Shown: positions 1 to 16,298 of the stretch, piece by piece
How positions within the stretch are numbered: the first letter of the stretch is position 1
Layout: every line of letters begins with the position of its first letter
Assembly: GCA_036759025.1 (NCBI GenBank)
Contig: DAIOVL010000018.1
Span: 2,494-66,493, forward strand
Source of the DNA: Bacteroidales bacterium
GTDB lineage: Bacteria > Bacteroidota > Bacteroidia > Bacteroidales > VadinHA17
DNA: 64,000 bases
Reading direction: 5' to 3'
Program-made: the position numbers and the translations under genes
Notes under the pieces: generated by a model
The model's database searches: none
Told to the model about the DNA's origin: nothing
Seen by the model: the letters and a program-made list of their open reading frames with translations, nothing else

Positions 1-196
1 GTGTCAGAGTTATTATTCCCTGAATATATACGCCCGTGTCGACCTGTGTTTTTCCGCTCCCGTACATATCCCGCAGTTGCTGTATGGTCATATATTCGAT
101 CACGGGCTCGGGCGGGGCTATCGGCTCCCTGTCACATGAGCCTGCAATCACCAGTGCACTTATCAGAACGACCTGTATGTAATATTTTATCTTCAT
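1..196 (-). CDS. Lipoprotein, N-terminal part only (gene runs off the left edge); probable paralog of the 211..1566 lipoprotein
   Basis: My minus-strand translation from the ATG at 194-196 gives MKIKYYIQVVLISALVIAGSCDREPIAPPEPVIEYMTIQQLRDMYGSGKTQVDTGVYIQGIITLT with no stop. It has a signal peptide and lipobox Cys. The 'QQLRDMY...VYIQGIITL' pattern matches 'VEQVKALY...AIRGIVTAS' in the neighbouring gene. The track's + ORF 1..198 looks like a shadow of this gene. Confidence 0.5.
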   Translation of the reverse strand, partial: MKIKYYIQVVLISALVIAGSCDREPIAPPEPVIEYMTIQQLRDMYGSGKTQVDTGVYIQGIITLT

Positions 197-210
197 GAGT
201 TGCTTTTCCT

Positions 211-1566
211 TTATTTGGCTGTTGTGACTGTTATATTGTCAATTCTGTAGCTTGTGCTCTCGGTATCGCTTCCGGTATATCTGAAGGCGATGACACACGT
301 TTTGCCGGCTTCAACAGGAAGACTGATGTTTCCGGAGGAAATGAATGTATGATCGGGATCACCCTGTATGGCCAGAGTACAGCTAACAGGAACCCATGTT
401 GCCGTAAGCAGGTTGCGTCCGGTATAATTTGTTGAATAAAAAACTTCGAAGGGCTTGCTGCCTGTTGCATGTTCCCAGTAGGCTTTGGCCGTTTCAAACG
501 AGAGGACCTTCTGTGTTGAAATTGTAACCGGCCTTGTTATAAGCCATGTTACCATCGAGGGGAGGTTTGAATTATACCCTGTGGCCTGGGCATATGTGTT
601 CCCGGAGTAATATTTTGCCTGCCAGTTCCTGTCACCTTCCTGGGCAATATTCTGCCATCCGCTTATCAGCACTTCAGTATTATTAGCGAAGGATGAAAAA
701 TCCTGAGTGATGGTTTCAACGGGAGTGCCAAGATCGGGAACCCCCGGCATACACCTTTCATTAGTTAGTTTTACTTCCGAAAAATCCCTTATGATAAACT
801 GGTAGTCGGAACTGAACCTTGTAATGATGCCGGTCATTGTGCCGTTTGTTTCAGGAATGATATTTCCGGCGAAGGAAGCATAACCGGATGTTCTGACTAT
901 GATCTTGCTGTTACTGCAGTCGGTCAGATCGCGGTTCAACGACTGAGGAGGATCTGATTCTATGTCCGCATAGGTCTGGTTCACCGCATTTCCTGCAAAC
1001 TGAACGTCTTTGAGGGTGACCAGTTTGCCCAGGAACGCAAGGCTCTTTGCCTGGGCAATGGTGATGGTGTCGGGCCGTGTCGGATTGTTTACAGAGGTCT
1101 TCAATACCTGCCTGTCCATGTTCATCCCCGAAACCCTGATGTCTCCGTCTTCTTCGTGATAGGGCGTACTGCCCACCTGCCAGAAATCGCCGTAATCACC
1201 TATATAGCAGCCTTTAAGGTTCACTATTACCGAGTCGCCGATGTACAGGCCGCTTGTGGAATCAAATATCAGTCTTATGCCTCCCGAAGCATCCTGGACA
1301 AAAGCTTCCTTGTACAGGTTGCCGTCTTTTTTGTCACTTGCCGTTACAATGCCCCTGATTGCCCATTCTTCAGTTATCGCGACAGGTTGCCTTAAACTGT
1401 AATTGAGTGCCAGCTGGTCAGCATAAAGAGCCTTTACCTGCTCAACAGAGACAATGTTGTCCGGACTGAACAACACTACCGGCGGATCATCTTCGTTATT
1501 GAAATCACAACCGGAAAGCATTGCTGTCAGTAAAAATAACAGGGAAATATTTTTCAACATTTTCAT
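211..1566 (-). CDS. Surface lipoprotein with two OB-fold-like lobes (DUF5689-like by recollection) and a C-terminal beta-sandwich (choice-of-anchor-J-like); non-SusD partner of the upstream TonB-dependent receptor
   Basis: Lipobox LSGC. Lobe 1 is IRGIVTASDKKDGNLYKEAFVQDASGGIRLIFD...GDSVIVNLKG...FWQVG. Lobe 2 is LVTLKDVQF...DLTDCSNSKIIVRTSGYASFAGNIIPETNGTMTGIITRFSSDYQFIIRD. It lies 71 nt downstream of the receptor on the same strand. Confidence 0.75.
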   Translation of the reverse strand: MKMLKNISLLFLLTAMLSGCDFNNEDDPPVVLFSPDNIVSVEQVKALYADQLALNYSLRQPVAITEEWAIRGIVTASDKKDGNLYKEAFVQDASGGIRLIFDSTSGLYIGDSVIVNLKGCYIGDYGDFWQVGSTPYHEEDGDIRVSGMNMDRQVLKTSVNNPTRPDTITIAQAKSLAFLGKLVTLKDVQFAGNAVNQTYADIESDPPQSLNRDLTDCSNSKIIVRTSGYASFAGNIIPETNGTMTGIITRFSSDYQFIIRDFSEVKLTNERCMPGVPDLGTPVETITQDFSSFANNTEVLISGWQNIAQEGDRNWQAKYYSGNTYAQATGYNSNLPSMVTWLITRPVTISTQKVLSFETAKAYWEHATGSKPFEVFYSTNYTGRNLLTATWVPVSCTLAIQGDPDHTFISSGNISLPVEAGKTCVIAFRYTGSDTESTSYRIDNITVTTAK

Positions 1567-1637
1567 TTATAGCTTTTTATTTTGTTCGTTTTTATAAGTA
1601 TTCTACAGATATTTAACCCACCCTTTTAAACTTTAAA

Positions 1638-4358
1638 CTACATCCTCACACTGAAATTAAGGAAGTAATTGAACCCGTTATAATAATACACCTTCGGATC
1701 GAAAAGATCAGGTCTGTCTGGATCGTACCTGTATTGCTCGAAACCTCCCGTGCCAAAGCTTTTATTGTTTAAAATATTACTGATGTTGGCGCTTAGGCTG
1801 ATAAAGGTGTCTTTAATTCTCCATGATTTACCCAGGAAAATATCGAGAAGATATCCCGGTGCCTGTTTTTTCTGGATATCCCAGTACTGAAAATAGCCGG
1901 TTTCAGCATCTTTGGTGCGTGTCACAGGGTTGAAATCGAGGTATATGTTATCATAGTAGCTTCCCGTTATGCTTGCCCACCAGTATCTCGACGAGTTGTA
2001 TTCGAGGCCCAGGGAAAAGGCAGTCTGAGGTGTTCCGCTTTGTCTGAAATATTTTATCCACACCTCTTCAATACGAAGAACCTCATTGTTATTGTCCTGG
2101 GTAATGGTGATATTCGGGTTATTAACCCACAGGTACTGTCCCAGGGCTGCAGCAGTGTTCAGGGTAAGGCCTGTCGTCAGAGTTACTTCCGCACCTATCT
2201 CCAGACCGTAATTTTCCTTGTCGATGTTCGTCATCGCGTAGTTGACAAGTGTCATAAGGTCGTCGTGGTAAAAAGTGGTTACCTCTGTCTGTTTCATGAA
2301 TTTCGTATAATAGCCGGTGATCCGTCCGGTTATCCACGGAGCCCGGAGGACGTAGCTGGCATCTGCCGAAATAATAGTTTCCTCCTGAAGGTTGGGCGTG
2401 GCGGTGTTCCTCGTCCTGGGTGAAAGGAAGGAATTGCGGAACAATGGAGGGTTGGTTGCTATCAGTGTATTCAGCGTGATAAGGTGTCTTCCCGTGATCC
2501 TGTAATCACCTCCTGCCTTGACACCCCAGGTCATATAATCAAGCACTTCCGATTTACCAAGCGAATTATCGGGAAACAGTCCTTTCCTCATCAGGCCTTC
2601 TCTCCACATTGACGTGTACCTGACGTTTCCACTCAGGTAAACTGAGTAACGGTTGTGGCTGTACCTGCCTGTTCCCCAAAGTGTCCCGCCTCTCTGAAAA
2701 ACATAATAGTTGTTGCCGATAATGTCACCTTCAACTGCAAGGTTGTCAGGGTTCTCAAGGTCATTCTGAAGGGCATCCCGGTTTGCCGGCTGATCGCTTT
2801 CGGCGAACTTGTCAATATCGAGCCAGAATTCACCGCCCAGGAGATCTTTTACAGTGTTGAAGTTATGCCCTCTGAAGATGTCGGCAAGTATACCACCGGT
2901 TACATTTAATCTTTCATTCAAATCCCAGGATGCCCTTGTGTTGAGCTGGAACTGAGAGATGTCGTTACGGCGGTCCTCGACAATATATTTGGATCTCAAC
3001 CCTGTAACATTATTTCCGGGGATCCCTTCAGCATCTTCCATGTAGAAAAGGTTTTTGCGGTTGGCAAAATAGAAACCGTCCCAGTCGATATGGCTTACAG
3101 AGGGGTCATTGACCCAGGCTGTGGCTATTCTGAGTGAATCTTCCTGATCGGTATAGTATGAAGGAAGCTTCCGGTAATAGTCGGGGCGGGGGTCGAGGGG
3201 ATCGTACCAGTTAAGTGCCGAGTAGCCGCTTTTTCCGAACCAGTAGCCAACGGTAGTCTGAACGTCCACTTTTTCACCCGGATTCCAGATATGTGCAAGT
3301 GTGAGCAGAGGTTTGTTATTGCTGCGAACCCTTGAGTTACGAACCTCTCCGTTCTGATAACCCCAGTAAGGGTTGTAGAAATTGTCATTCATCAGGTCGT
3401 AGATCTCCTGTGTGGTCCCGCCTGCTACGCCTCTTTCATATATGGCATTCAGGGCCGTGAAGTTAAGACTGTGACGGGGATTTAGTTTCTTCTCCACCGA
3501 AAGGAAAAATGAGTTTGCATCGTAGAAAGTCCCTTCTTCGTAGCCTCTTTCGCTCCAGCGTTTTGAATAGCTTCCGGTGATGGCCCAGTTGTTATCCATC
3601 AATCCGGTGGAATAAGTGAGCATAAGCCTGTTGCCGTATGTCCGGTTTGAAAGTGAATACACGGCTTTTATACCTGTCCTGTATTCCGAGGCTCTTGTAT
3701 TTATTCGTGTTGCACCACCTACGGGTTCAAAAAGGAAGCCTATCGGCTCTGGTCCTGAGGTGACCATGGCGCTTCTCATGACATCGTTAAGGCCTCCCCA
3801 GTTGGACCAGTAAGGAGATCCAGACTCTATATCGTTCATTACGAAGCCGTTGAGACTGACGTTACTGTAGTTTGCATCATAACCTCTTACCCTGAACATA
3901 ACCGGTCCGAAAGTATAGGCTGCGTTGCTGAGGAAAACATCAGCGCCGGCACTAAGGATACCCTGTACCGATTGTGTTTCAAATCCGTCATCTTCAATAC
4001 CTTCACTGATATTTAAAGTGAAGAGATCCTGCCTTGATAATGCCGATGATCTCAGACCCGTCGTTCCGGCATCAGTTACTTCATCTGTTTTCACAACAAC
4101 TTCAATTACAGCCTGATCAAAATCGGTGTTATTGATGTATAGTATATGTTCCCCTTCGGGAAGCGATAGCGAAAATGTACCATCACTTGTTGTGATCCCG
4201 ACCACTCTTCCCGAGGCATTTGTTATTTCCGTGCCCGGAAGTCCCGTCTGTTTTTCGGTATCAATCACTTTTCCTATTACCGTACCCTGCTGGGAATATC
4301 CTGCTACAGAGAATATTGCCAGGGATAAAAATAAGATAATCAGTTTGTTGTATTTCAT
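1638..4358 (-). CDS. TonB-dependent outer-membrane receptor with an N-terminal carboxypeptidase-regulatory-like domain
   Basis: 906 aa with a signal peptide. GTVIGKVIDTEKQTGLPGTEITN...DGTFSLSLPEGEHILYIN is a CarbopepD_reg-like fold. A plug region follows (VRGYDANYSNVSLNGFVMND), then a long beta-barrel with alternating hydrophobic residues. Confidence 0.9.
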   Translation of the reverse strand: MKYNKLIILFLSLAIFSVAGYSQQGTVIGKVIDTEKQTGLPGTEITNASGRVVGITTSDGTFSLSLPEGEHILYINNTDFDQAVIEVVVKTDEVTDAGTTGLRSSALSRQDLFTLNISEGIEDDGFETQSVQGILSAGADVFLSNAAYTFGPVMFRVRGYDANYSNVSLNGFVMNDIESGSPYWSNWGGLNDVMRSAMVTSGPEPIGFLFEPVGGATRINTRASEYRTGIKAVYSLSNRTYGNRLMLTYSTGLMDNNWAITGSYSKRWSERGYEEGTFYDANSFFLSVEKKLNPRHSLNFTALNAIYERGVAGGTTQEIYDLMNDNFYNPYWGYQNGEVRNSRVRSNNKPLLTLAHIWNPGEKVDVQTTVGYWFGKSGYSALNWYDPLDPRPDYYRKLPSYYTDQEDSLRIATAWVNDPSVSHIDWDGFYFANRKNLFYMEDAEGIPGNNVTGLRSKYIVEDRRNDISQFQLNTRASWDLNERLNVTGGILADIFRGHNFNTVKDLLGGEFWLDIDKFAESDQPANRDALQNDLENPDNLAVEGDIIGNNYYVFQRGGTLWGTGRYSHNRYSVYLSGNVRYTSMWREGLMRKGLFPDNSLGKSEVLDYMTWGVKAGGDYRITGRHLITLNTLIATNPPLFRNSFLSPRTRNTATPNLQEETIISADASYVLRAPWITGRITGYYTKFMKQTEVTTFYHDDLMTLVNYAMTNIDKENYGLEIGAEVTLTTGLTLNTAAALGQYLWVNNPNITITQDNNNEVLRIEEVWIKYFRQSGTPQTAFSLGLEYNSSRYWWASITGSYYDNIYLDFNPVTRTKDAETGYFQYWDIQKKQAPGYLLDIFLGKSWRIKDTFISLSANISNILNNKSFGTGGFEQYRYDPDRPDLFDPKVYYYNGFNYFLNFSVRM

Positions 4359-4475
4359 GAGCGGTGATAAAATTTCGCTGTAAATATACTACAAATCCTG
4401 TTTCCTCAGACTCATGGCATCATATTTGGTCGCAATGCTTTATATATTAACTTTACAGCTTTCAAAACGGACTGG

Positions 4476-5510
4476 ATGAAGAAAATGCTGGTTATTGTGG
4501 TGATGGTCTTCCTGTCAGGACAGGCTAATTCACAGACTTACAGGGCTGGACTGATAGCTTTTTATAACCTCGAAAACCTTTTCGACACTATTAATAATGA
4601 TAATGTTCTTGATGAAGAATTTACACCAGATGGACTAAACCGTTGGACAGGTGTCAAGTATCTGAAGAAGCTAGGCAATATGGCTGAGGCCATCTCACGA
4701 ATAGGAGAAGATGATGGCTGGAAGGGAGGACCGGCGATACTGGGTGTCTCCGAAATTGAGAACCGGGGTGTGCTTGAGGATCTGATCCGCCATCCATTGC
4801 TCAGGGAAGCAGGTTATCAGATTGTTCATTATGACTCGCCTGACAGGAGGGGTGTTGATGTGGCGTTACTGTATCGTACTGCTTTTTTCAGGGTCACTGC
4901 TTCCGGCAGCAACGAGCTCAGAATATTCAACGAAAGTGGTGAGAGAGTTTTTACCCGCGACCAGCTAGTGGTTTCAGGGATTTTTGATGGGGAACCGATG
5001 CATTTCATAGTTAATCACTGGCCTTCACGCAGCGGAGGTGAACTGCTTACAAAGCCCAGGCGTAACGAAGCGGCAATGCTTACCCGTCATCTCGTCGACA
5101 GCCTTCTGGCAATTGATAAAGAAGCAAAGGTCTTTGTTATGGGAGACCTCAATGATGATCCGACCGACGAAAGCCTTCGTAAATATCTCCGGGCTGTTGG
5201 AAATCCTGAAAAAATGAATGAGGATGAAATGTTCAATTGCATGTATCCGCTTTTCAGAAAAGGGGTGGGATCATTGTATTACAGGGACGGTGTAAATCTT
5301 TTTGACCAGATTGTCATCACTCAGGCGCTCACAGGGAAAGATTATTCATCATATAAATTCTACCAGGCAAGGGTATTCAACAGTCAGTTTCTGGTTCAGA
5401 AAGACGGACAGTACAAAGGTTACCCTCTCCGGACGATGGTAGGCACAGTTTTTCAGGGCGGCTACAGCGATCATTTTCCTGTTTACGTGCTGATTGTCAG
5501 GGGACAGTAA
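4476..5510 (+). CDS. Secreted endonuclease/exonuclease/phosphatase (EEP) family enzyme, ExeM/NucH-like catalytic core
   Basis: Signal peptide MKKMLVIVVMVFLSGQANSQ. EEP motifs present: FYNLENLFD, GVSEIEN, FIVNHWPSRSGG, MGDLNDDP, YSDHFPVYV. Confidence 0.85.
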   Translation: MKKMLVIVVMVFLSGQANSQTYRAGLIAFYNLENLFDTINNDNVLDEEFTPDGLNRWTGVKYLKKLGNMAEAISRIGEDDGWKGGPAILGVSEIENRGVLEDLIRHPLLREAGYQIVHYDSPDRRGVDVALLYRTAFFRVTASGSNELRIFNESGERVFTRDQLVVSGIFDGEPMHFIVNHWPSRSGGELLTKPRRNEAAMLTRHLVDSLLAIDKEAKVFVMGDLNDDPTDESLRKYLRAVGNPEKMNEDEMFNCMYPLFRKGVGSLYYRDGVNLFDQIVITQALTGKDYSSYKFYQARVFNSQFLVQKDGQYKGYPLRTMVGTVFQGGYSDHFPVYVLIVRGQ

Positions 5511-5522
5511 AAGTGAAGGTGA

Positions 5523-6419
5523 TCACTCCGCTGCAACAAGCTTTATTCCCACCGGCCGGTGATCGGAAATATAGTATGAGTATTCCGGATAACATGGTGC
5601 TGCCTTGTAAACCATCGTGGTGTCTAGATTGAAGAAGAGTTCATCGGTTATAAGAATATGGTCTATATGGCTTGGCCATGAGGGGTAGGACCACCACAGC
5701 TGACTCCCCGAAGCAATTTCCATATCGGCAAAACGGTAGTTTTCAGGATCGTTAATAAAATTGAGGAAAGGATTTTCATCAGCCCCGGTGCCGGTAATTT
5801 CGTCGTTGAGATCTCCAAGTATGATCACTGCATCATCGGCCCTGTCGTTATCGATGTAATCTTTCAGCAAAAGAGAAGCCATCCTCCTGCTTGTCTCATT
5901 TTCAAATCCTCCGCAGCATTTAAGATGGTTGTTGATGAGAATAAGGTCTAAGCCTGTATTTTTATGCATTATACTGATCTCAAAGGGGGGCCTCGGGAAA
6001 TATTCGGAACCACTGAAGAGAAGCCTTGCCGAGCCCTGGGAAACTGATATCTCAGAGGTTTTCCAGATATAGGCAAGGTTCCAGTCGGAATTGTTAATAA
6101 GGTAGAAAAGGCCTGAATAACCTGGCATGAGGCTAATAAGCTGATTGAAGGAAGCTTCTGATGCCACCTCCTGAAGTGCATATATGTCGGCGTCGATGGT
6201 ATTCAGAAGAGAGGCGACGGCTATTGCTGAAGAATATCCGTTCAGAGGGAATGTTTCAATGTTGAATGTTACAATATCAAGACTTGAACCTGAGCCCGGG
6301 TAAGGGATGCAGGGAACGAAGATATCTGATTCTCCCGGAGAGGGAGGCTCAGGTACCTGCCGGCATGCGGCTGCAGTCAGTAAGAACAGTATATATATTA
6401 TTATACGTAGATCCTTCAT
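5523..6419 (-). CDS. EEP-family lipoprotein (second putative nuclease/phosphodiesterase)
   Basis: EEP motifs present: VTFNIETFP, DIYALQEV, INNHLKCCGG, LGDLNDE, ISDHRPVGI. The track start at 6431 is TTG. I prefer the ATG at 6419, which gives MKDLRIIIYILFLLTAAAC, a signal peptide with lipobox. Confidence 0.8.
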   Translation of the reverse strand: MKDLRIIIYILFLLTAAACRQVPEPPSPGESDIFVPCIPYPGSGSSLDIVTFNIETFPLNGYSSAIAVASLLNTIDADIYALQEVASEASFNQLISLMPGYSGLFYLINNSDWNLAYIWKTSEISVSQGSARLLFSGSEYFPRPPFEISIMHKNTGLDLILINNHLKCCGGFENETSRRMASLLLKDYIDNDRADDAVIILGDLNDEITGTGADENPFLNFINDPENYRFADMEIASGSQLWWSYPSWPSHIDHILITDELFFNLDTTMVYKAAPCYPEYSYYISDHRPVGIKLVAAE

Positions 6420-6438
6420 GTATTGTTTCAAAAATTAA

Positions 6439-6481
6439 CCGCAAAGGTCGCAAAGTTATTGTGTCTTTGCGCACTTTGCGG
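6439..6481 (-). terminator. Long interrupted hairpin followed by a T-run on the minus strand; terminator or attenuator between the T9SS cargo gene and the EEP lipoprotein gene
   Basis: CCGCAAAG-GT-CGCAAAG / loop TTATTGTGT / CTTTGCG-CA-CTTTGCGG gives 7+8 bp stems with a 2x2 internal loop. On the minus strand it is followed by TTAATTTTTG. Confidence 0.55.
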
Positions 6482-6519
6482 TCAATATTTTTAAGAAGTT
6501 AAATTGTCTGAAGCAGGTT

Positions 6520-8649
6520 TTACTGTTTAACAAACCTTCTGACCAGGGTCCCTTCTGTTGTATTTATCTTCAGGATGTAGGTTCCGCGTGTCAGTCCCGA
6601 AACAGGAATACCGACAACTTCATCGCTGGAGGTGTTGATGGTTTTGATCACCTTGCCTGCTATGTCGAGCACTTCCACCGACCTGAGTCCGGGAACATTG
6701 CTAAGGTTAAGCAGCGAGGAAGCCGGAACCGGGTAGACCTTTATGTCATCTCTCTGAAGGGCATTTTCTATACCTGTAACCACTGAAAGATCGTTCAGAG
6801 TACGGCTTGCTATCTCAACAGTTGTGTTGTATCTCATTGCAAGTCCTGTAACATCATAGTTGCCCATGGGTATTATTGAGCCCACTATATCGCTTTCGGG
6901 GGCTTCAAAGGTGAAGAATTTGATAGTGTTCACACCATCAGTAAGGTCGTAGGTCTTTTCGGAACCGAATGTTGCTGATCCGTCTGCAATGGGAAAGTTG
7001 ACATTTACCAGCTTGACAAGTCTTGCTTCATATGGGTCGAAGCTGGCAGTAATTTCTGCTATTGTAACGGATGTAACAACAGGAGTGTTGCCGCTGGAAG
7101 CCACGGAAACAGTTGTTTTTGTGGGAACGATCTGATTCATTCCGTTATAGTATCCTAATTTACCTTCCAGGTTCTGGATGTTGTCACCAACAGCAAGAGG
7201 GGTTGTCAGTATTGCAGAAGCATCGTCGATCAGTAATCCTGCTCCCGAATCCTGGATATATTTCTGGTTCCTGTTGGCTGACGACCTGAGGAAGGTGACG
7301 GTTACTTCGGAGCTGATCTTGACGATATCGTTGATAATACATCTGTTCTTCAGGTCGGTGAGGCTTGTAGCCACGGCAATCAGCGTGAAATCTCCGCTTA
7401 CAGAATTAACGGCTGCATTGGAGGCATCAGAGATCCTGATCTGGTACTGGGTTCCGTACAGCGCATCTCCCGGAATGATAAAATTCAATAACCCTGAGGC
7501 TGCCGGCATGGTTTCAACGAGTGTTTCCCATTTATATGTACGGTCAGAATCCACCACCCAGGCTTCTATTTTAACATTATCCACGTTTGCCGAAGTCCAG
7601 GTGATATCCACGTTCTGTCCTGCATAGTATGTCTCACCGCCGGCAGGAGCTGTTAGTGTAATTGTTGCTGCGGAAGCGGATACTGTGGTGAATGTGATAT
7701 TTGAACCGGTGGTTTCGTTCCCGCTTAGGTCTTCAACGGCTCCCACAGCCAGGTAATAAAGCTGGGAGTTATCCAGTGAAGCCGAAGGCGTGATGGTTAT
7801 TACCTTTTTTGAGTCATCAATTGTAGCGGAGAAAGGAACGTTATCGCCTGAAGCATCGGTCTTTTTAAATGTAACCAGACTTGCAAGATCGCTGTTCTCC
7901 AGTGCATTTCCGTCGGTTTTTCTTATGGCTTCATTGTAGGTAACAGTAGGAATTACACCTATGGCAACGTCGGTTGCTTCGTTTTCCGGATCAAAATCAG
8001 GGATTGGTGCCTGGGAATCTTCAATAATGAAAAGGTTGTCTATCCTGTTATTCCCTGAACTTGATGTTGCTCCTGTAACGGTAAGTTTCAGATAAACAGT
8101 AGCAGCATTGTTTATAGCTTCTATTGATGTAAGGTCAACAGTCTCAACTGACCATGTTGAAGTCTTATTGGCTGCATTAGTGGCGCATGCAGTATAAGAA
8201 ATATTATCAGTACTCCATTCCCAGGAATGGGTGTCAAATCCAGTGGAAGTACCTCTCGTAGCAAGCAATACTTTAATTTTACTTAATGCCAGAGTCGAAA
8301 ATTTAATAACAAGGCTTTTCCCGTTAGCCGTGTTATTGGCAAGAGCCAAGGCCATTCCGGATGCAGGTGTAGGTCTTGGATCATTCAGAGTAGTACCACT
8401 GAAGGCAGTTAGTTCCGGGCTTGTAGGAACTGATATCCATGAAGATGAACCATTAGTTCCATCAAGGTAGATGAACGAGTTGGATGTTGAACTGCCATAA
8501 TCTGCCTGGATTACACTTGCTGTGGGCACTTCGCTTGTAGGTGCCAGTAAGCCATCAAATGACCACGAAGCTATAATTGTCTGTGCTGAAACATTGGAAA
8601 AAAAACCAGCCAGAACTATAAAAACTAAACTGAGTAGAGTTTTTTTCAT
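6520..8649 (-). CDS. T9SS-secreted multidomain surface protein: N-terminal domain, bacterial Ig-like domain, two-lobed OB-like module, type-A T9SS C-terminal sorting domain
   Basis: Signal peptide ...SNVSAQ. Ig-like segment DFDPENEATDVAIGVIPTVTYNEAI...ITITPSASLDNSQLYYLAVGAVEDLSGNE. OB-like module KYIQDSGAGLLIDD...VGDNIQNLEGKLGYYNGMNQIVP plus ARLVKLVNVNF...YDLTDGVNTIKFFT...IIPMGNYDVTGLAMRYNTTVEIASR. The C-terminus IKVYPVPASSLLNLSN...GTYILKINTTEGTLVRRFVKQ is typical of a T9SS CTD. Confidence 0.8.
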   Translation of the reverse strand: MKKTLLSLVFIVLAGFFSNVSAQTIIASWSFDGLLAPTSEVPTASVIQADYGSSTSNSFIYLDGTNGSSSWISVPTSPELTAFSGTTLNDPRPTPASGMALALANNTANGKSLVIKFSTLALSKIKVLLATRGTSTGFDTHSWEWSTDNISYTACATNAANKTSTWSVETVDLTSIEAINNAATVYLKLTVTGATSSSGNNRIDNLFIIEDSQAPIPDFDPENEATDVAIGVIPTVTYNEAIRKTDGNALENSDLASLVTFKKTDASGDNVPFSATIDDSKKVITITPSASLDNSQLYYLAVGAVEDLSGNETTGSNITFTTVSASAATITLTAPAGGETYYAGQNVDITWTSANVDNVKIEAWVVDSDRTYKWETLVETMPAASGLLNFIIPGDALYGTQYQIRISDASNAAVNSVSGDFTLIAVATSLTDLKNRCIINDIVKISSEVTVTFLRSSANRNQKYIQDSGAGLLIDDASAILTTPLAVGDNIQNLEGKLGYYNGMNQIVPTKTTVSVASSGNTPVVTSVTIAEITASFDPYEARLVKLVNVNFPIADGSATFGSEKTYDLTDGVNTIKFFTFEAPESDIVGSIIPMGNYDVTGLAMRYNTTVEIASRTLNDLSVVTGIENALQRDDIKVYPVPASSLLNLSNVPGLRSVEVLDIAGKVIKTINTSSDEVVGIPVSGLTRGTYILKINTTEGTLVRRFVKQ

Positions 8650-10930: not shown

Positions 10931-12169
10931 TTACATAAAAGCACCCTCTGCCTCTTCAAGCGAAATACCGAGAGCTTGAAGGGCAACCTTGTTAAGCAGG
11001 TCCTTTTTGCCTGTGATGTGAAGTGTAAACTGTCTATGAGTCATCACTTCTCCGGGTTTCAGTGCTGCGGCAGGAGAGGAACTCTCAAGCTCGTAGAAGG
11101 GTCCCATCTGTGAACCGTCTTCCAGGGGACCGTCGTTGTATGAGTTGAGCGCATCGCCGGAATATGGTTCTTCCTGTAACTCCCATGCAGAGTTTACATA
11201 ATCCTTGACTCCTTCAGGCAATCTGCATATCAGAAGTGTCAGGATATTGTTTGCAGAGTCGTAGCTTCCCATAATTCCTGTGGCCCTCAGCGGCGGGATC
11301 CCGATCTTGCCCCGGCTCTTTCCGTCGGCCCTGAAAAATATGTGGCTATCGGTGACCTTCAGCCTGTCGCCGGCAATACTGCCGAAGTAACTATCGTTTA
11401 CCGGAGGTCCCATGATTCGCGCATCACCCTGATTATAGGGTATTACAACCACCACTGATGGTGAAGGAATAAACATTCCCAGCATCCATACCGAAAGAAG
11501 CCCCCCATCCCTTGTCCACGCACTTTCTCCGGTGTTTATCAGCCTGTTGACCGAACGGTATGCCACACTGCTGAGACCCGTCAGGTCAAGCCCTGTCTCG
11601 CTGATAATGCCATTCCTGGTCAGTAGTGTCACCTCTCTTTCAATCCTGAAGGTCAGACGGGTGCCACTGTAGTTTTCTGTTTCGGTTTCGTGAGAAAACA
11701 AAGCCGAAGTGTCGGTTCTCGCTGATACTTCAAATGGTTTGGTGTCGAGAAAATCAGGAGTCTGCCAGTTATCATAGATGAATTCTTCTCCTTTTTTGAA
11801 GAATATTGAAAACTGTCCTCCTTCCGGTCCGAGCCATAACCTTTCCTCCCCTCCAAATGCGTTGATATGAGGCTGAATCTCTCCGGAAGCAATGAGCCTG
11901 TGGTTTATCCACCCGTAGCTGAAGCCCGCATCCCCCTCCGCAGTACTTGTCATCACCCGTCCCTGCCATGAGGGAACAAGTGTAACAGCTGAATTACCCC
12001 GTTTCAGTTCGATGATCGCGACATGTTCGCTGAGAAAATCGCGATCGTATCCGTAAGAACCTGATTTGTTATTCGTCATGGATTCATGTTTTTGATTTTC
12101 CTTTTTGCCGCTTCCTGTGCATGAGATCAGGGAGACGAACAATATCAGCAACAAAGGTGTTGTTTTCAT
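10931..12169 (-). CDS. Conserved hypothetical lipoprotein, function unknown
   Basis: Lipobox LISC. The 412-aa ORF has no competing frame and I recognise no catalytic motif. My recollection that it belongs to a DUF family (DUF6786-like) is unverified. Confidence 0.7.
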   Translation of the reverse strand: MKTTPLLLILFVSLISCTGSGKKENQKHESMTNNKSGSYGYDRDFLSEHVAIIELKRGNSAVTLVPSWQGRVMTSTAEGDAGFSYGWINHRLIASGEIQPHINAFGGEERLWLGPEGGQFSIFFKKGEEFIYDNWQTPDFLDTKPFEVSARTDTSALFSHETETENYSGTRLTFRIEREVTLLTRNGIISETGLDLTGLSSVAYRSVNRLINTGESAWTRDGGLLSVWMLGMFIPSPSVVVVIPYNQGDARIMGPPVNDSYFGSIAGDRLKVTDSHIFFRADGKSRGKIGIPPLRATGIMGSYDSANNILTLLICRLPEGVKDYVNSAWELQEEPYSGDALNSYNDGPLEDGSQMGPFYELESSSPAAALKPGEVMTHRQFTLHITGKKDLLNKVALQALGISLEEAEGAFM

Positions 12170-12175
12170 CTTCTG

Positions 12176-13261
12176 CTACAATTGGTTATGAACAGTATTT
12201 TGCTTTGCCTTTCTGCCACGGATCAGGTAGCTGTACCTTCTCCACCCGGGTATTGCTGTAAGTGAAGTGAACCTGACCATTGCTCTCAGTGGCCTGAAAT
12301 ACATTACATAATGCATTATCAGGTACACAAGATATGCAGCTGCGATCATCAGTCCGATGTTTAGCAGCTCTGATAATCCTTTCCACCACCATACTGATGG
12401 TGCAAGACCTGTAAGTCCGATTATGGTCTTAGCAAGCCATCCGTATGCTGCCGATGCCAGGAAGATCATGCCTGTTGCCATGCCATGGGCAGTCTCAACA
12501 GCCTGCTTCGGACAAAGGTTCATACATCTCATACAGCTTTCACAGGTCATTTTCCAGTATGGGCGGCCCCTGACCATGGTGATCGATTCCGTAGGACATT
12601 CTTCTATACAAATACCACAGTTATTGCAATTATCGTTCGCAACAAAGGTCTTGGCAAGGAAGAATCGGCCGACAATGTAGTATGCCACGGCAACAGGTGA
12701 TAAAACCATGTCGACCGGCAGACTGTACAGTCCGCGGTAAATTTTCTTTCCTGACAGGATATCTGAGGCAAACTTCTTCACTTTCGGTTCCCAATGGGCG
12801 ATGATGGATTCTATAACTCTTGTTTTCAATCCAGGGTGGACAGATATCCAGTTCGACGGAAGATCGACCGGACGAAATCCGATACACCTGTATCCTTTAA
12901 GCCTGAGCATCAGTGCAGGGACGATGAGTGCCAGGCCTGAAATCCCGGGTGTGAATAATTTATACATTTTCATCCCTGCCCTGGTGTTCGCCAGGAAAAT
13001 TTCCCTTCCAGCACCACGTGGAAATCCTGCAATGAATTTCAGCATTATCGGTGCTGCGTTGAATCCGTGAGTGGGGTAAATAAAACCTGTCAGAGATCTT
13101 TCATCCGGTGCCGGCATGCTTATATTCTTCAATCTGTCGATTTGCCGGACTACTGTATTAAAGCCCCTTCTTTCAGCCTCTTCTGCTATCCAGTATGCTG
13201 TGAGACGGGCGTTGCCTGTGCCCGAGATATAATAAAGATACAAAGAGTCAGAATTTTTCAC
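12176..13261 (-). CDS. Membrane-anchored flavodoxin-like / 2x[4Fe-4S] ferredoxin protein (EFR1-like)
   Basis: Flavodoxin-like N-terminus LYYISGTGNARLTA. Two cluster motifs, CNNCGICIEECP and CESCMRCMNLCP. The C-terminus is hydrophobic with predicted TM helices. GTG start. Confidence 0.75.
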   Translation of the reverse strand: MKNSDSLYLYYISGTGNARLTAYWIAEEAERRGFNTVVRQIDRLKNISMPAPDERSLTGFIYPTHGFNAAPIMLKFIAGFPRGAGREIFLANTRAGMKMYKLFTPGISGLALIVPALMLRLKGYRCIGFRPVDLPSNWISVHPGLKTRVIESIIAHWEPKVKKFASDILSGKKIYRGLYSLPVDMVLSPVAVAYYIVGRFFLAKTFVANDNCNNCGICIEECPTESITMVRGRPYWKMTCESCMRCMNLCPKQAVETAHGMATGMIFLASAAYGWLAKTIIGLTGLAPSVWWWKGLSELLNIGLMIAAAYLVYLIMHYVMYFRPLRAMVRFTSLTAIPGWRRYSYLIRGRKAKQNTVHNQL

Positions 13262-13416
13262 CTTAATTATAATAAACAGATATGCCGGGAATGATGATCA
13301 TGATACTAAGATATTCATATTAGTCGTAAAATATACAATACCGTTATATTATGTCTCTGAGTGGATTAATTGTTTGCACTTTTTTTTCTGTTAACCCCAA
13401 ACCATTATAATCATAT

Positions 13417-13424
13417 TATTTTTG
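13417..13424 (+). promoter_or_regulatory. -7 promoter box for rlmN
   Basis: TATTTTTG is an exact TAnnTTTG, 16 nt upstream of the ATG at 13441. Confidence 0.45.
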
Positions 13425-13440
13425 TATCTCTGCACACGTA

Positions 13441-14472
13441 ATGGGAAAGATGAAACTTACAGGCATGAGCGCTGACGAGATCTCCGGTCTTATCGAGCCG
13501 GGCGGATTCACCCGCAGTCATGCCGTCAGAATATCCAACTCAATCTACAAGAAAGGTATCAGCGATCTTTCATTTTTTCCGGGAGTCCCCAGACACCTGA
13601 AGGAATATCTTCATGAGCGTTCAGAGTCAGGTATTTATGAACCTTTATCATCTTCAGCCTCTGCTGACAGCAGCATAAAATTCGTGTTCTCAAACAGCCG
13701 TAAGATGAAGTTTGAGACAGTGTTCATTCCTGAGAAAAAAAGAATAACAGTTTGTGTTTCAACACAATCGGGATGCCGTATGGGCTGTTCCTTCTGTGCA
13801 ACAGGCAGATACGGCTTTCACGGAAACCTTGATGCAGGCGATATTGTGAATCAGGTTATCGTTTGTCAGCGTGTAAAACCAATAACCCATGTGGTCTTCA
13901 TGGGAATGGGTGAGCCTCTCGATAACACTGAAAATGTTCTTAAAGCATGCCAATTACTTACTGCTGAGTGGGGCATGGCCATAAGCCCGAGGAGTATAAC
14001 CGTTTCTACTGTAGGCATCATTCCCGGTCTGATCCGCTTTCTCGAAGGATCGTCATGCAACCTCGTTGTAAGCCTCTTTTCACCCTTCCCTGCAGAGAGG
14101 GCGAAGATGGTCCCTGCCGAAAAAAAATACCCTGTGCAGGAGATAATCAGAATAATGGCCGGCTTCCCTTTAGTAAAGAAAAGAAGGTTTAGTATCGCCT
14201 ATGTGATGCTAAAAGGGATAAACGATACAAAGAAACACCTGGAGGAGATAATGAAAATCCTCAGTGGTACGGGTATAAGGGTTAATCTTCTTCCATACCA
14301 CAAACTGCCCGGAGATGAATATGTATCTTCCGGTACAGGGGTCATGGACCTTTTCAGGCACGAACTGATGAAATCGGGCATCTCTGCATCTGTGAGGCGT
14401 TCGAGAGGAGCAGATATATCTGCTGCCTGCGGACTTCTTGCTTCAGGCCTGAGCCGGGAGGAAGTCATCTGA
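13441..14472 (+). CDS. rlmN: Radical-SAM 23S rRNA/tRNA adenine-C2 methyltransferase RlmN
   Basis: CRMGCSFCATG radical-SAM cluster motif, MGMGEPLDN, and a C-terminal catalytic Cys (DISAACG). Confidence 0.9.
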   Translation: MGKMKLTGMSADEISGLIEPGGFTRSHAVRISNSIYKKGISDLSFFPGVPRHLKEYLHERSESGIYEPLSSSASADSSIKFVFSNSRKMKFETVFIPEKKRITVCVSTQSGCRMGCSFCATGRYGFHGNLDAGDIVNQVIVCQRVKPITHVVFMGMGEPLDNTENVLKACQLLTAEWGMAISPRSITVSTVGIIPGLIRFLEGSSCNLVVSLFSPFPAERAKMVPAEKKYPVQEIIRIMAGFPLVKKRRFSIAYVMLKGINDTKKHLEEIMKILSGTGIRVNLLPYHKLPGDEYVSSGTGVMDLFRHELMKSGISASVRRSRGADISAACGLLASGLSREEVI

Positions 14473-14633
14473 GATAATTTTCAGGTAAAACTTTTTTTAA
14501 ACACGGAGGCTTTCTATATTTATCGTGAAAATTTGTCGGGACAAAGCTTCTGATAGTTTAACAACAGCAAATATTTAATTACTCCTGAAAGCTTTTTCTA
14601 CTCATGTAAAGTACCAGGTATAAAACATTTATT

Positions 14634-16298
14634 ATGAAAAGGATCCTTTTTATTCTCCCCGTTTTCTTCCTTTTTTTCACCGGATGCGATAAAAGTCCTA
14701 AGGAAGGAACAGAAAGTGTCCCTGCCATCATACCGGCTCCCCTGTCATTGACTCCGGGCAAAGGACACTTCAGATTTACTGACAGAACCATGATCATTAT
14801 TCCTGCCGCCGACGGTGAAGCCCGACTTGCTGCAAGTCTTCTTGCCACACTCTCCGGCAATCCGACAGGAATAGTCCCGGAAATTGTTGAAGGAGATAAA
14901 CCGAAACGGGGATCGGTATTCATGGCATACGACCGGCAGATAGCAAATGCTGAGGGATATGTCCTGGATATCACTTCAAAACATATAAAGATCACTGCCG
15001 GAACGGCAGCAGGCTTTTTCTATGCAGTCCAGTCGCTCAGACAGCTTATGCCTCCCGCAGTTGAGGAGGCGAGCATTGTGGACGGATTGGAAATTTCCGT
15101 ACCCGCCTGCCTGATAACTGATGAGCCTGCATTCGGCTACCGGGGGATGCACCTCGACGTCGGACGTCACATGTTTCCCGTGGCCGCCATTAAGAAGTAT
15201 ATCGACATGCTGGCATTACATAAAATGAATACCTTCCACTGGCATCTGACAGAGGACCAGGGCTGGAGGATAGAGATAAAAAAATATCCCGCGCTGACAG
15301 AGACAGGAGCATACAGGAATGAAACTGTCATCGGTCATGCCGGAAGGCCACCGCTTAAATATGACGGCACCCGTTACGGAGGTTTTTACACGCAGGAAGA
15401 AGTTAAAGAAGTAGTTGCCTATGCAAAGGAAAGGTTCATAACCGTCATTCCTGAGATTGAAATGCCCGGACATGCCCTGGCGGCTCTTGCATCATATCCG
15501 GAATTGTCATGCACGGGCGGACCTTTTGAGGTAGGTGAAAAATGGGGAGTGTATGAAGATATATTCTGTGCCGGCAGGGAGGAAACATTCACATTCCTTC
15601 AGGATGTGCTCTCAGAGGTGATATCATTATTTCCGGGAACCTACATTCATATCGGCGGCGATGAAGCACCAAAGGCAAGATGGGAAAAATGCCGTCTTTG
15701 TCAGAAGAGGATAAGGGATGAAGGCCTTGCAGATGAACATGAACTGCAGAGTTATTTTATTCAGCGAATAGAAAAGTTTCTGCTGGCTAACGGAAAAAGA
15801 CTCATCGGATGGGATGAAATACTCGAAGGAGGTCTTGCTCCTGAAGCTACGGTAATGTCGTGGAGAGGTATCAAAGGCGGGATAGCTGCAGCAAAAGAGA
15901 AGCATGATGTAATAATGACTCCCAACAGCCATGTTTATCTCGATTATTACCAGGCTGAACCTGCCGGAGAACCGCTTGCAATAGGCGGTTACCTGCCTCT
16001 GGAAAAAGTTTATTCATTCAACCCCCTGCCTGCTGAACTTACGCCCGAAGAGCAGAAACATATCCTGGGAGTACAGGGTAATGTCTGGACAGAATACATA
16101 GCCACTCCGGAGCACATGGAATATATGGCTTTCCCGAGGGCTTTTGCCATCGCCGAGACCGGATGGACGCCTGACAGGCTGAAGGACTTTGAGGATTTTC
16201 TCGCCCGCCTGGAAGTACAGAAGAAGCGGTATGATGTATTGAATTTAAATTATTTCAGGGGAGAATACAGGAACACCAGGGCTGCGGGCTCTAAGTGA
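14634..16298 (+). CDS. Beta-N-acetylhexosaminidase (GH20), lipoprotein
   Basis: Lipobox FFTGC. GH20 motifs GMHLDVGRH, FHWHLTEDQGWR, HIGGDEAPK and WRG. Confidence 0.9.
   Translation: MKRILFILPVFFLFFTGCDKSPKEGTESVPAIIPAPLSLTPGKGHFRFTDRTMIIIPAADGEARLAASLLATLSGNPTGIVPEIVEGDKPKRGSVFMAYDRQIANAEGYVLDITSKHIKITAGTAAGFFYAVQSLRQLMPPAVEEASIVDGLEISVPACLITDEPAFGYRGMHLDVGRHMFPVAAIKKYIDMLALHKMNTFHWHLTEDQGWRIEIKKYPALTETGAYRNETVIGHAGRPPLKYDGTRYGGFYTQEEVKEVVAYAKERFITVIPEIEMPGHALAALASYPELSCTGGPFEVGEKWGVYEDIFCAGREETFTFLQDVLSEVISLFPGTYIHIGGDEAPKARWEKCRLCQKRIRDEGLADEHELQSYFIQRIEKFLLANGKRLIGWDEILEGGLAPEATVMSWRGIKGGIAAAKEKHDVIMTPNSHVYLDYYQAEPAGEPLAIGGYLPLEKVYSFNPLPAELTPEEQKHILGVQGNVWTEYIATPEHMEYMAFPRAFAIAETGWTPDRLKDFEDFLARLEVQKKRYDVLNLNYFRGEYRNTRAAGSK

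Follow-up and report, generated by a model that had tools for sequence, protein, structure and literature searches.

Introduction

The ddbABCDEF genes of Bacteroides thetaiotaomicron form a DNA-utilisation locus (Sharan et al., PNAS 2025; PMC12478041). DdbA, DdbB and DdbF are nucleases that degrade DNA in vitro, DdbC is a TonB-dependent transporter, DdbD is a DUF5689 protein and DdbE is a protein with a signal peptidase II (SPII) signal; SPII signals are also found in DdbA and DdbF, and a signal peptidase I (SPI) signal in DdbB (PMC12478041). Deletion of ddbABCDEF abolishes both the depletion of DNA and the production of the nucleobases uracil and xanthine from it (PMC12478041). In AlphaFold3 models DdbD sits on DdbC as a predicted cap, and it resembles the DNA-binding HIN domain of p202 (PMC12478041). 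Loci like ddb, anchored by DdbC homologues, occur across the Bacteroidota, and the ddb subtypes Bt1, Bt2, Pv1 and Pv2 have been distinguished (PMC12478041). Here we describe a cluster of transporter, DUF5689 and nuclease genes that probably constitutes a ddb-type nucleic-acid (DNA) utilisation and uptake system of an uncultured Bacteroidales-like bacterium. The cluster lies at the left end of a stretch of 64,000 nucleotides, the whole of which is called the window below (assembly GCA_036759025.1, contig DAIOVL010000018.1, positions 2,494 to 66,493).

Two further sets of genes bear on this comparison. The ddb operon includes the earlier-described operon BT3560-3563 of B. thetaiotaomicron VPI-5482, in which genes for a TonB-dependent receptor and a hypothetical protein are accompanied by those for two nucleases, BT3562 and BT3563; BT3563 is an extracellular DNase (PMC8851478). 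In the ddb study, RA0C_RS04915 and RA0C_RS04920 of Riemerella anatipestifer, which a ddbB-like nuclease gene adjoins, were also related to DdbC and DdbD (PMC12478041). Both Riemerella proteins are essential for natural transformation, and RA0C_RS04920, annotated as a choice-of-anchor J protein, combines DUF5689 with DUF5017 (Huang et al. 2021, PMC8459023).

The locus described here resembles ddbABCDEF in having about six genes, in which the transporter is followed by a DUF5689 protein and then by a further signal-peptide protein of unknown function. As in ddb, the DUF5689 gene lies directly beside the transporter gene, here at a distance of 71 bp, and one SPI-type (periplasmic) nuclease accompanies two exported ones. 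Judged here by eye from their signals, these are a PF19580 enzyme of SPI type, a PF03372 enzyme with a lipobox and an Endonuclease_1 enzyme with a sorting domain of the type IX secretion system (T9SS). Both loci share the logic of a polysaccharide utilisation locus (PUL), that is, to bind, cut, import and cut again. In contrast to ddb, T9SS C-terminal domains replace the lipoprotein signals on one binder and one nuclease, the DUF5689 proteins number three where ddb has one so named, one exported nuclease is an Endonuclease I, and the host is an uncultured, Bacteroidales-like bacterium that is not a gut isolate. What is new is that Endonuclease I and one of the DUF5689 binders are T9SS cargo, and that three DUF5689 proteins are present.

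The Riemerella locus has the same succession of a carboxypeptidase-regulatory-like receptor and a lipoprotein with DUF5689 and DUF5017/choice-of-anchor-J domains, but it is minimal, has no reported set of secreted nucleases, and the role shown for it is transformation. With the SusC/SusD PULs the locus shares a carboxypeptidase-regulatory-like transporter with an adjacent lipoprotein lid, surface binders and enzymes, and periplasmic finishers. T9SS-exported enzymes are also found in PULs of non-gut Bacteroidota. Unlike those PULs, the locus has a DUF5689 lid and no SusD homologue, nucleases rather than glycoside hydrolases, and a barrel that is unmatched by Pfam TonB_dep_Rec or Plug. The extracellular nucleases ExeM, Xds and NucH likewise join a core of the endonuclease/exonuclease/phosphatase (EEP) superfamily to nucleic-acid-binding beta-barrels, with a lamin-tail domain (LTD) in relatives, for envelope-associated degradation of extracellular DNA. 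These are single chains (LTD, oligonucleotide-binding (OB) region and EEP core) without a dedicated transporter, whereas here the binding modules reside on separate proteins tied to a transporter. Kinship in sequence between DUF5689 and the OB region of ExeM/NucH is hinted at only (E=0.015). An LTD protein of Streptosporangium from a plasmid collection was rejected as a reference for ExeM/NucH, since it has EEP, PKD and LTD domains and no OB region.

No new kind of system comes to light in this locus. The preliminary description of this DNA knew of no characterised system with such an architecture, a claim that fails because the Riemerella (2021) and ddbABCDEF (2025) systems had already been described. 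The value of the locus is to indicate that DUF5689-lidded transporter and nuclease systems are not confined to gut Bacteroides and Riemerella.

Results

Organisation of the locus

Six adjacent genes had been reported at the left end of the window, and all six open reading frames (ORFs) are recovered at the same coordinates when the window is translated. The motifs that had been quoted for them can all be read in the translations as well (FVQDASGGIRLIFD, GDSVIVNLKG, YIQDSGAGLLIDD, GDNIQNLEG, LVTLKDVQF, LVKLVNVNF, NHWPSRSGG, GDLNDDP and SDHFPV). The features are listed below, with positions on the window except where locus L001 is named; L001 carries the part of the cluster that extends beyond the left edge of the window.

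L001 12709-13737, left of the window: Endonuclease I with a T9SS C-terminal domain (Endonuclease_1, E=9e-81, and Por_Secre_tail)
1-196, minus strand: N-terminal part of a 412-aa lipoprotein (full gene L001 11371-12609; Pfam DUF5689, E=1e-30)
211-1566, minus strand: 451-aa predicted surface lipoprotein (Pfam DUF5689, E=2e-54; NCBIfam choice_anch_J, E=6e-19)
1638-4358, minus strand: 906-aa outer-membrane protein like a TonB-dependent transporter, by predicted fold
4359-4475: divergent intergenic region of 117 bp between the receptor and PF19580 nuclease genes, with presumed promoters in both directions
4476-5510, plus strand: 344-aa EEP-superfamily nuclease, EEP1 (Pfam PF19580 Exo_endo_phos_3, E=7e-123)
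5523-6419, minus strand: 298-aa EEP-superfamily lipoprotein, EEP2 (Pfam PF03372 Exo_endo_phos, E=3e-10)
6520-8649, minus strand: 709-aa T9SS cargo protein (DUF5689, E=1e-10; Por_Secre_tail/TIGR04183, E=1e-10)

Bases 1-196 of the minus strand are the opening 65 codons of a gene cut by the window edge; the rest of this 412-aa lipoprotein gene and then the Endonuclease I gene follow beyond it. By gene arrangement, the complete set comprises seven genes in three transcription units, one with the 709-aa T9SS DUF5689 protein and the EEP lipoprotein, a second with the PF19580 nuclease, and a third with the receptor, the 451-aa and 412-aa DUF5689 lipoproteins and the Endonuclease I with its T9SS domain. 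In terms of domains, this amounts to three DUF5689 proteins, two EEP nucleases, one Endonuclease_1 and two T9SS C-terminal domains. EEP1 and EEP2 are transcribed towards each other, with 12 bp between their genes, and EEP2 has an alternative TTG start at 6431 that would give 302 aa. Two other contigs, one of 94 kb from a JGI metagenome and one from ENA, encode the locus proteins as well. Lipoboxes (LSGC, AGSC and AAAC) and SPI-type signal peptides were assigned by eye throughout. Scans of the locus for sigma-70 promoters and for terminators gave no enrichment, such a scan being uninformative for Bacteroidota. No SusD-like domain was found in any locus protein with Pfam or NCBIfam, and the neighbour of the receptor is a DUF5689 gene, in agreement with the earlier view of a receptor that is not of SusC/SusD style.

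The transporter

The 906-aa protein had been taken for a TonB-dependent receptor, an assignment that holds by predicted fold and finds no counterpart among the sequence models. Neither Plug (PF07715) nor TonB_dep_Rec is matched in Pfam even at E<=10, NCBIfam yields no such match, and a sequence search of the PDB returned none; the sole Pfam match is CarbopepD_reg_2, below the cut-off (E=2e-6). Since these searches failed, the assignment was made from the predicted structure. An AlphaFold2 model computed with 47 relatives has a mean pLDDT score (local distance difference test, as predicted) of 71.7, the barrel being well predicted and residues ~106-212 poorly. The architecture is that of an N-terminal carboxypeptidase-regulatory-like domain, a plug-like region, in which the plug-like motif FRVRGYDANYSNVSLNGFVMND was recognised by eye, and a beta-barrel. 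When the model was compared with the PDB by Foldseek, the top 50 matches were all TonB-dependent transporters (E 5e-19 to 3e-14), including PqqU, Fiu, FhuA, FecA, BtuB and OprC, with target-normalised TM-scores of 0.5-0.67. As modelled, the protein thus has the fold of a 22-strand barrel with an N-terminal plug, the latter predicted at low confidence.

The receptor belongs to a very large family, with more than 3,800 relatives in a word-indexed search and 755 clusters at 50% identity in an exhaustive one (E<=1e-30). Pfam domains of the plug or barrel were found in none of 120 relatives among the matches listed by the word-indexed search, so that the family escapes the Pfam TonB models, a point of use for annotation. 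From end to end, the receptor is 39-43% identical to those of Aureibacter, Flammeovirga and a Chryseobacterium metagenome-assembled genome (MAG). Judged by its modelled fold, the 906-aa protein is predicted to be the anchor of the locus, of the DdbC/RA0C_RS04915 type.

The DUF5689 binders

The preliminary description had noticed by eye a two-lobed module common to the 451-aa lipoprotein and the T9SS protein. This module is Pfam DUF5689 (PF18942), and it is present in three locus proteins. It spans residues 37-265 of the 451-aa protein (E=2e-54) and 461-620 of the 709-aa protein (E=1e-10), and scores 185.1 bits in the 451-aa, 107.6 in the 412-aa and 42.3 in the 709-aa protein, against a gathering threshold of 28.6. 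The isolated modules match DUF5689 with E-values of 4e-55, 1.5e-31 and 2.8e-12. The likeness seen by eye is therefore real, both proteins lying above the gathering score; BLASTP aligns them with 25% identity over 188 columns (E=0.002).

An AlphaFold2 model of the 451-aa protein (pLDDT 81.6) contains two small beta-barrels, at residues ~68-145 and ~154-269, followed at 286-449 by a jelly roll, which is the choice-of-anchor-J/DUF5017 domain. The two lobes of the module align in register (hhalign profile-profile E=3e-4, probability 38%), lending weak support to an origin by tandem duplication. In the second barrel, three strands, a short helix and two strands follow one another, as they would in an OB fold. 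The module had been likened to the OB barrels of ExeM, NucH and YhcR, a comparison that finds faint support. A fold search with the whole 451-aa model returned no OB or HIN fold in the top 50; the matches were dominated by the jelly roll and comprised gingipain adhesin, MAM, Eph and carbohydrate-binding-module folds. A DUF5689 profile of 62 diverse modules found no significant match among PDB sequences, the OB-fold chains of SSB and RPA appearing only below threshold (E 0.16-0.84). The OB-likeness of DUF5689 is thus faintly suggested by the predicted order of secondary structures and by these sub-threshold hints.

The 451-aa gene starts 71 bp downstream of the receptor gene. Its product matches the NCBIfam model NF052645 (M949_1556 family lipoprotein, named after Riemerella) over model positions 60-456 of 457 (E=1e-56). 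The bit scores of the 451-aa and 412-aa proteins on this model, 192.4 and 96.7, do not reach the subfamily cut-off of 475, and the two proteins are relatives rather than members of that subfamily. By analogy with DdbD and RA0C_RS04920, the 451-aa lipoprotein is predicted to be the DNA-binding lid of the transporter. The 412-aa lipoprotein, which has DUF5689, a choice_anch_J domain (NCBIfam, E=2e-13) and the lipobox AGSC (by eye), is predicted to be a second binder, placed as DdbE is in ddb.

The third binder is built differently. In the 709-aa protein an SPI signal is followed by a domain at ~23-215, Big_5 and Kre9_KNH immunoglobulin (Ig)-like domains (219-423), a divergent DUF5689 (~461-620) and a T9SS sorting domain (638-709). 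The sorting domain is of type A and scores 41.2 bits on TIGR04183, above the cut-off of 23; with the N-terminal signal peptide recognised by eye, this bears out the T9SS export signal that had been proposed for one binder. The Endonuclease I on L001 scores 31.3 bits on the same model. The divergent module has only two close relatives in a word-indexed search, both consisting of DUF5689 and Por_Secre_tail, and accessory proteins that join DUF5689 to a T9SS C-terminal domain recur in loci L006, L034, L044, L046 and L047. From these domains the 709-aa protein is predicted to be a surface-tethered, DNA-binding accessory.

Residues 23-215 of the 709-aa protein match no Pfam or NCBIfam family, nor a choice-of-anchor-J hidden Markov model (HMM) built here. 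This domain ends in NNRIDNLFI, which resembles the YRIDNITV C-terminus of the choice-of-anchor-J domains of the lipoproteins. In the closest loci (L004, L005 and L007), the place of the 709-aa protein is taken by a protein with choice-of-anchor-J and T9SS domains and without DUF5689.

The nucleases

EEP1, a PF19580 protein with an SPI-type signal peptide (by eye), has the motifs of a catalytic type (NLENLFD, NHWPSRSGG, GDLNDDP and SDHFPV) and is predicted from its sequence to be a nuclease of the periplasm, the equivalent of DdbB. Its identity is 54% with the Aureibacter and 41% with the Flammeovirga orthologue. EEP2 has a lipoprotein-type signal ending in LTAAAC (by eye) and is 33-35% identical to EEP lipoproteins of the Aureibacter and Flammeovirga loci. 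It matches the NCBIfam model ExeM_NucH (NF033681) weakly and in the EEP core only (E=9e-5, 21.5 bits). Standing where DdbA stands in ddb, it is predicted to be a DNase of the cell surface or outer membrane. The PF03372 EEP gene is limited to the closest loci, L004-L008 and L017, and to two isolates. No protein of the locus combines an OB-type region with an EEP core.

Conservation across the Bacteroidota

In a scan of one genome per species, the receptor had at least 591 relatives that were confirmed; the best 80 loci, not a random sample of the family, were analysed. Their receptors are 35-70% identical to that of the window, and B. thetaiotaomicron and Riemerella are not among them. Neighbouring genes were found with HMMs iterated from the window's own proteins.

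The 80 loci span Bacteroidales, Flavobacteriales, Chitinophagales, Saprospiraceae, Sphingobacteriales and others. A DUF5689 gene lies immediately downstream of the receptor gene, on the same strand, in 78 of the 80 loci (median gap 27 bp), and in the two exceptions the contig ends there. The PF19580 gene adjoins the receptor in 67/80 loci; of the 75 loci that extend far enough upstream, 62 have a divergent gene of this type within 1 kb, at a median gap of 158 bp. Conservation of the gene association had been set beforehand as a check, and these counts show that it extends well beyond the present genome. Endonuclease_1 is present in 12/80 loci. The extended set of the window, with an upstream T9SS protein and EEP lipoprotein and, downstream, two DUF5689 proteins and Endonuclease I, is found only in L003-L008 and L017. 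The core triad of receptor, DUF5689 protein and PF19580 enzyme thus recurs in many orders of the Bacteroidota, to which environmental lineages add T9SS-exported binders and nucleases and fusions of binder and nuclease.

Lineages differ widely in how many binding modules a lid carries. Tandem DUF5689 was seen in many lids of the 80 loci, with two modules in 17 ORFs and three in 5 (examples are L013 4401-6446, L022, L016, L044, P0208/P0221/P0227 of 783 aa, and others). The triad also occurs on MAG contigs labelled Chlorobiota and Candidatus Competibacteraceae (L018, L061), which could reflect either mis-binning or spread beyond the Bacteroidota.

Two cultured, annotated carriers were identified, the Cytophagales Aureibacter tunicatorum and Flammeovirga kamogawensis, which have the same families on secondary replicons (pAT2 and p1, respectively). 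On pAT2 all six families stand in one row, which includes a DUF5689 and DUF5017 protein, a two-module DUF5689 protein, Endonuclease_1, a PF19580 enzyme (54% identical to that of the window) and a PF03372 enzyme (35% identical). The p1 locus has five genes, for a PF03372 enzyme, a PF19580 enzyme, a receptor annotated 'TonB-dependent receptor' and 40% identical to that of the window, a lid and a fusion endonuclease. The lid, downstream of the receptor (L084 13787-16912), is a protein of 1041 aa with DUF5689, two DUF6359 and an LTD, which suggests that DUF6359 and LTD are further accessory modules of DUF5689 lids. The fusion (L084 17025-18888; NZ_CP076130, KM029_RS26970) is a lipoprotein annotated 'endonuclease' in which DUF5689, a choice-of-anchor-J-like domain and Endonuclease_1 are joined; its DUF5689 and choice-of-anchor-J-like part is 27% identical to the 451-aa protein (residues 11-451) and its Endonuclease_1 part 46% to the Endonuclease I of the locus. 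The fusion thereby links the binder in function with a DNase. Apart from the PF19580 enzyme, all components carry a lipobox in both isolates, a pattern of one SPI-type enzyme among lipoproteins that matches the one reported for DdbB versus DdbA, DdbE and DdbF.

Discussion

Our results indicate a locus whose domain content, transporter fold and conserved core triad are those of a ddb-type system. The surface machine imagined in the preliminary description, which would bind, cleave and import its substrate without a SusD partner, was essentially right, for the same families in the same arrangement are found in ddbABCDEF (PMC12478041) and in RA0C_RS04915/04920 (PMC8459023). By analogy with the ddb work, in which the nuclease activities and the need of the locus for DNA depletion were shown and the lid model was proposed, the system may operate as follows. 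Extracellular DNA would be captured by the DUF5689 modules of the two lipoproteins and of the T9SS-anchored protein, the Ig-like domains of the latter possibly holding its module away from the cell. It would be cut outside the cell by the T9SS-exported Endonuclease I and the EEP lipoprotein, as family membership and signal sequences suggest. Fragments held by the 451-aa lid could then pass the 906-aa transporter, a lid role modelled on DdbC and DdbD, and would be degraded in the periplasm by the SPI-type PF19580 nuclease, with the products presumably entering nucleotide salvage or catabolism. In this scheme, the affinity of DUF5689 for DNA, the place of each protein in the cell and the physiological purpose are inferred.

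Some points weigh against a ddb-type assignment. The likeness to DdbC (WP_008762511.1), DdbD and the Riemerella proteins is one of shared Pfam and NCBIfam families and of annotation, not of alignment. The receptor matches neither Pfam Plug nor TonB_dep_Rec, and parts of its plug region (residues 106-139 and 181-212) have pLDDT values <50. The only candidate for a TonB box, found by eye, is LFTLNISE at residues ~112-119, in a disordered linker after the N-terminal domain; VFTVTAED aligns with it in the Chryseobacterium MAG homologue. The fold search with the 451-aa model gave neither an OB nor a HIN fold, and DNA binding by DUF5689 is deduced rather than demonstrated, both here and in PMC12478041. 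Between the locus and a nucleoside:H+ symporter encoded nearby lie a tRNA gene and repeats, and the symporter is not conserved beside related loci. Finally, activity, substrate (DNA or RNA) and localisation are predictions at this locus.

The alternative that survives best is natural transformation, in which long DNA would cross the outer membrane through the receptor with its DUF5689 lid and go on to recombination by way of ComEC and DprA, as it does in Riemerella anatipestifer. The 906-aa and 451-aa proteins agree in domain composition with RA0C_RS04915 and RA0C_RS04920, both of which transformation requires (PMC8459023), the 451-aa protein spans the full Riemerella-named NCBIfam model at E=1e-56, and tonB mutants of Riemerella lose transformation (PMC8383284). 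Nevertheless, two secreted or surface nucleases with a periplasmic one fit the breakdown of DNA better than its preservation, gut Bacteroidales with ddb loci were inconsistent in DNA-uptake assays (PMC12478041), and no competence genes were seen in the annotated parts of the window. We therefore consider transformation unlikely as the explanation of the locus. Feeding and transformation are not mutually exclusive, however, and transformation stays a live alternative or an added function. A tentative extension, on which we would not count, is a long-reach capture arm of the ddb-type system in those Bacteroidota that have a T9SS. A T9SS-anchored protein with a divergent DUF5689 on Ig-like spacers might catch DNA at a distance from the cell surface and pass it on to the lids, with T9SS-exported Endonuclease I trimming it. 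In uncultured environmental Bacteroidales, import by this apparatus might serve both feeding and transformation.

Less probable still is the idea that the DUF5689 modules are the detached OB binding parts of an ExeM/NucH-type nuclease, acting in trans with the EEP enzymes. It is true that ExeM and Xds need a YhcR-like OB region for activity (PMC6085458, PMC6746945), and that DUF5689 is fused to LTD and to Endonuclease_1 in Flammeovirga. The invariant partner of DUF5689 is, however, the receptor (78/80), not the PF03372 EEP gene, and the natural fusion joins it to Endonuclease I, not to an EEP domain. Scores on ExeM_NucH (NF033681) are 14 to 28 bits against a cut-off of 300, the DUF5689 module of the 709-aa protein reaching 14.2 bits on model positions 29-109. 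This framing is weak because of these low scores and of the receptor as the constant partner of DUF5689. AlphaFold3 also sets DdbD on DdbC (PMC12478041). The binders are best read as lids or accessory subunits of the transporter and not as a nuclease's separated pieces. For annotation, DUF5689 may now be taken as a probable nucleic-acid-binding lid.

Phosphatases and sphingomyelinases belong to the EEP superfamily, and RNA can be cut by members of the Endonuclease I family, which leaves some room for RNA or another phosphodiester polymer as substrate. An about equally unlikely account, that this or the remodelling of matrix and biofilm extracellular DNA is the main role and import secondary, can draw on BT3563 of the homologous operon, which promotes bile-dependent biofilm by degrading matrix extracellular DNA (PMC8851478), but is disfavoured because the lidded transporter is conserved, kept together with the periplasmic nuclease in nearly all related loci so that uptake appears central, and because deletion of ddbABCDEF stopped the formation of products from DNA and not from nucleosides (PMC12478041).

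Surroundings of the locus

Beyond the Endonuclease I gene, L001 continues with a tRNA gene, tandem 284-nt repeats and the nucleoside:H+ symporter gene. The interval between Endonuclease I and the symporter (L001 13780-14742) contains an 89-nt tRNA gene (13942-14030; Rfam 60.7 bits) flanked by 78-nt direct repeats, and two near-identical tandem units of 284 nt with internal inverted repeats (14175-14742). The symporter was rejected as a member of the locus, being separated from it by the tRNA gene and repeats and not conserved near related loci; the M3 peptidase that flanks the locus was rejected for the latter reason as well. To the right of the locus follow unrelated genes for this peptidase, DUF6786, radical SAM, GH20 and PD40/TPR proteins. 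A secreted 5'-nucleotidase had been noted as a possible but unlinked contributor, and this is what was found: the 604-aa protein at 59087-60901 has the Metallophos and 5_nucleotid_C domains of a 5'-nucleotidase type, and its gene is ~50 kb from the locus, among unrelated genes, between those for a Mur-ligase-like protein and an M28 peptidase. Just right of the M3 peptidase gene, in the window at 10931-14472, a DUF6786 protein (E=3e-152) is encoded beside a 4Fe-4S ferredoxin-domain protein, and the radical SAM gene is transcribed divergently from this pair.

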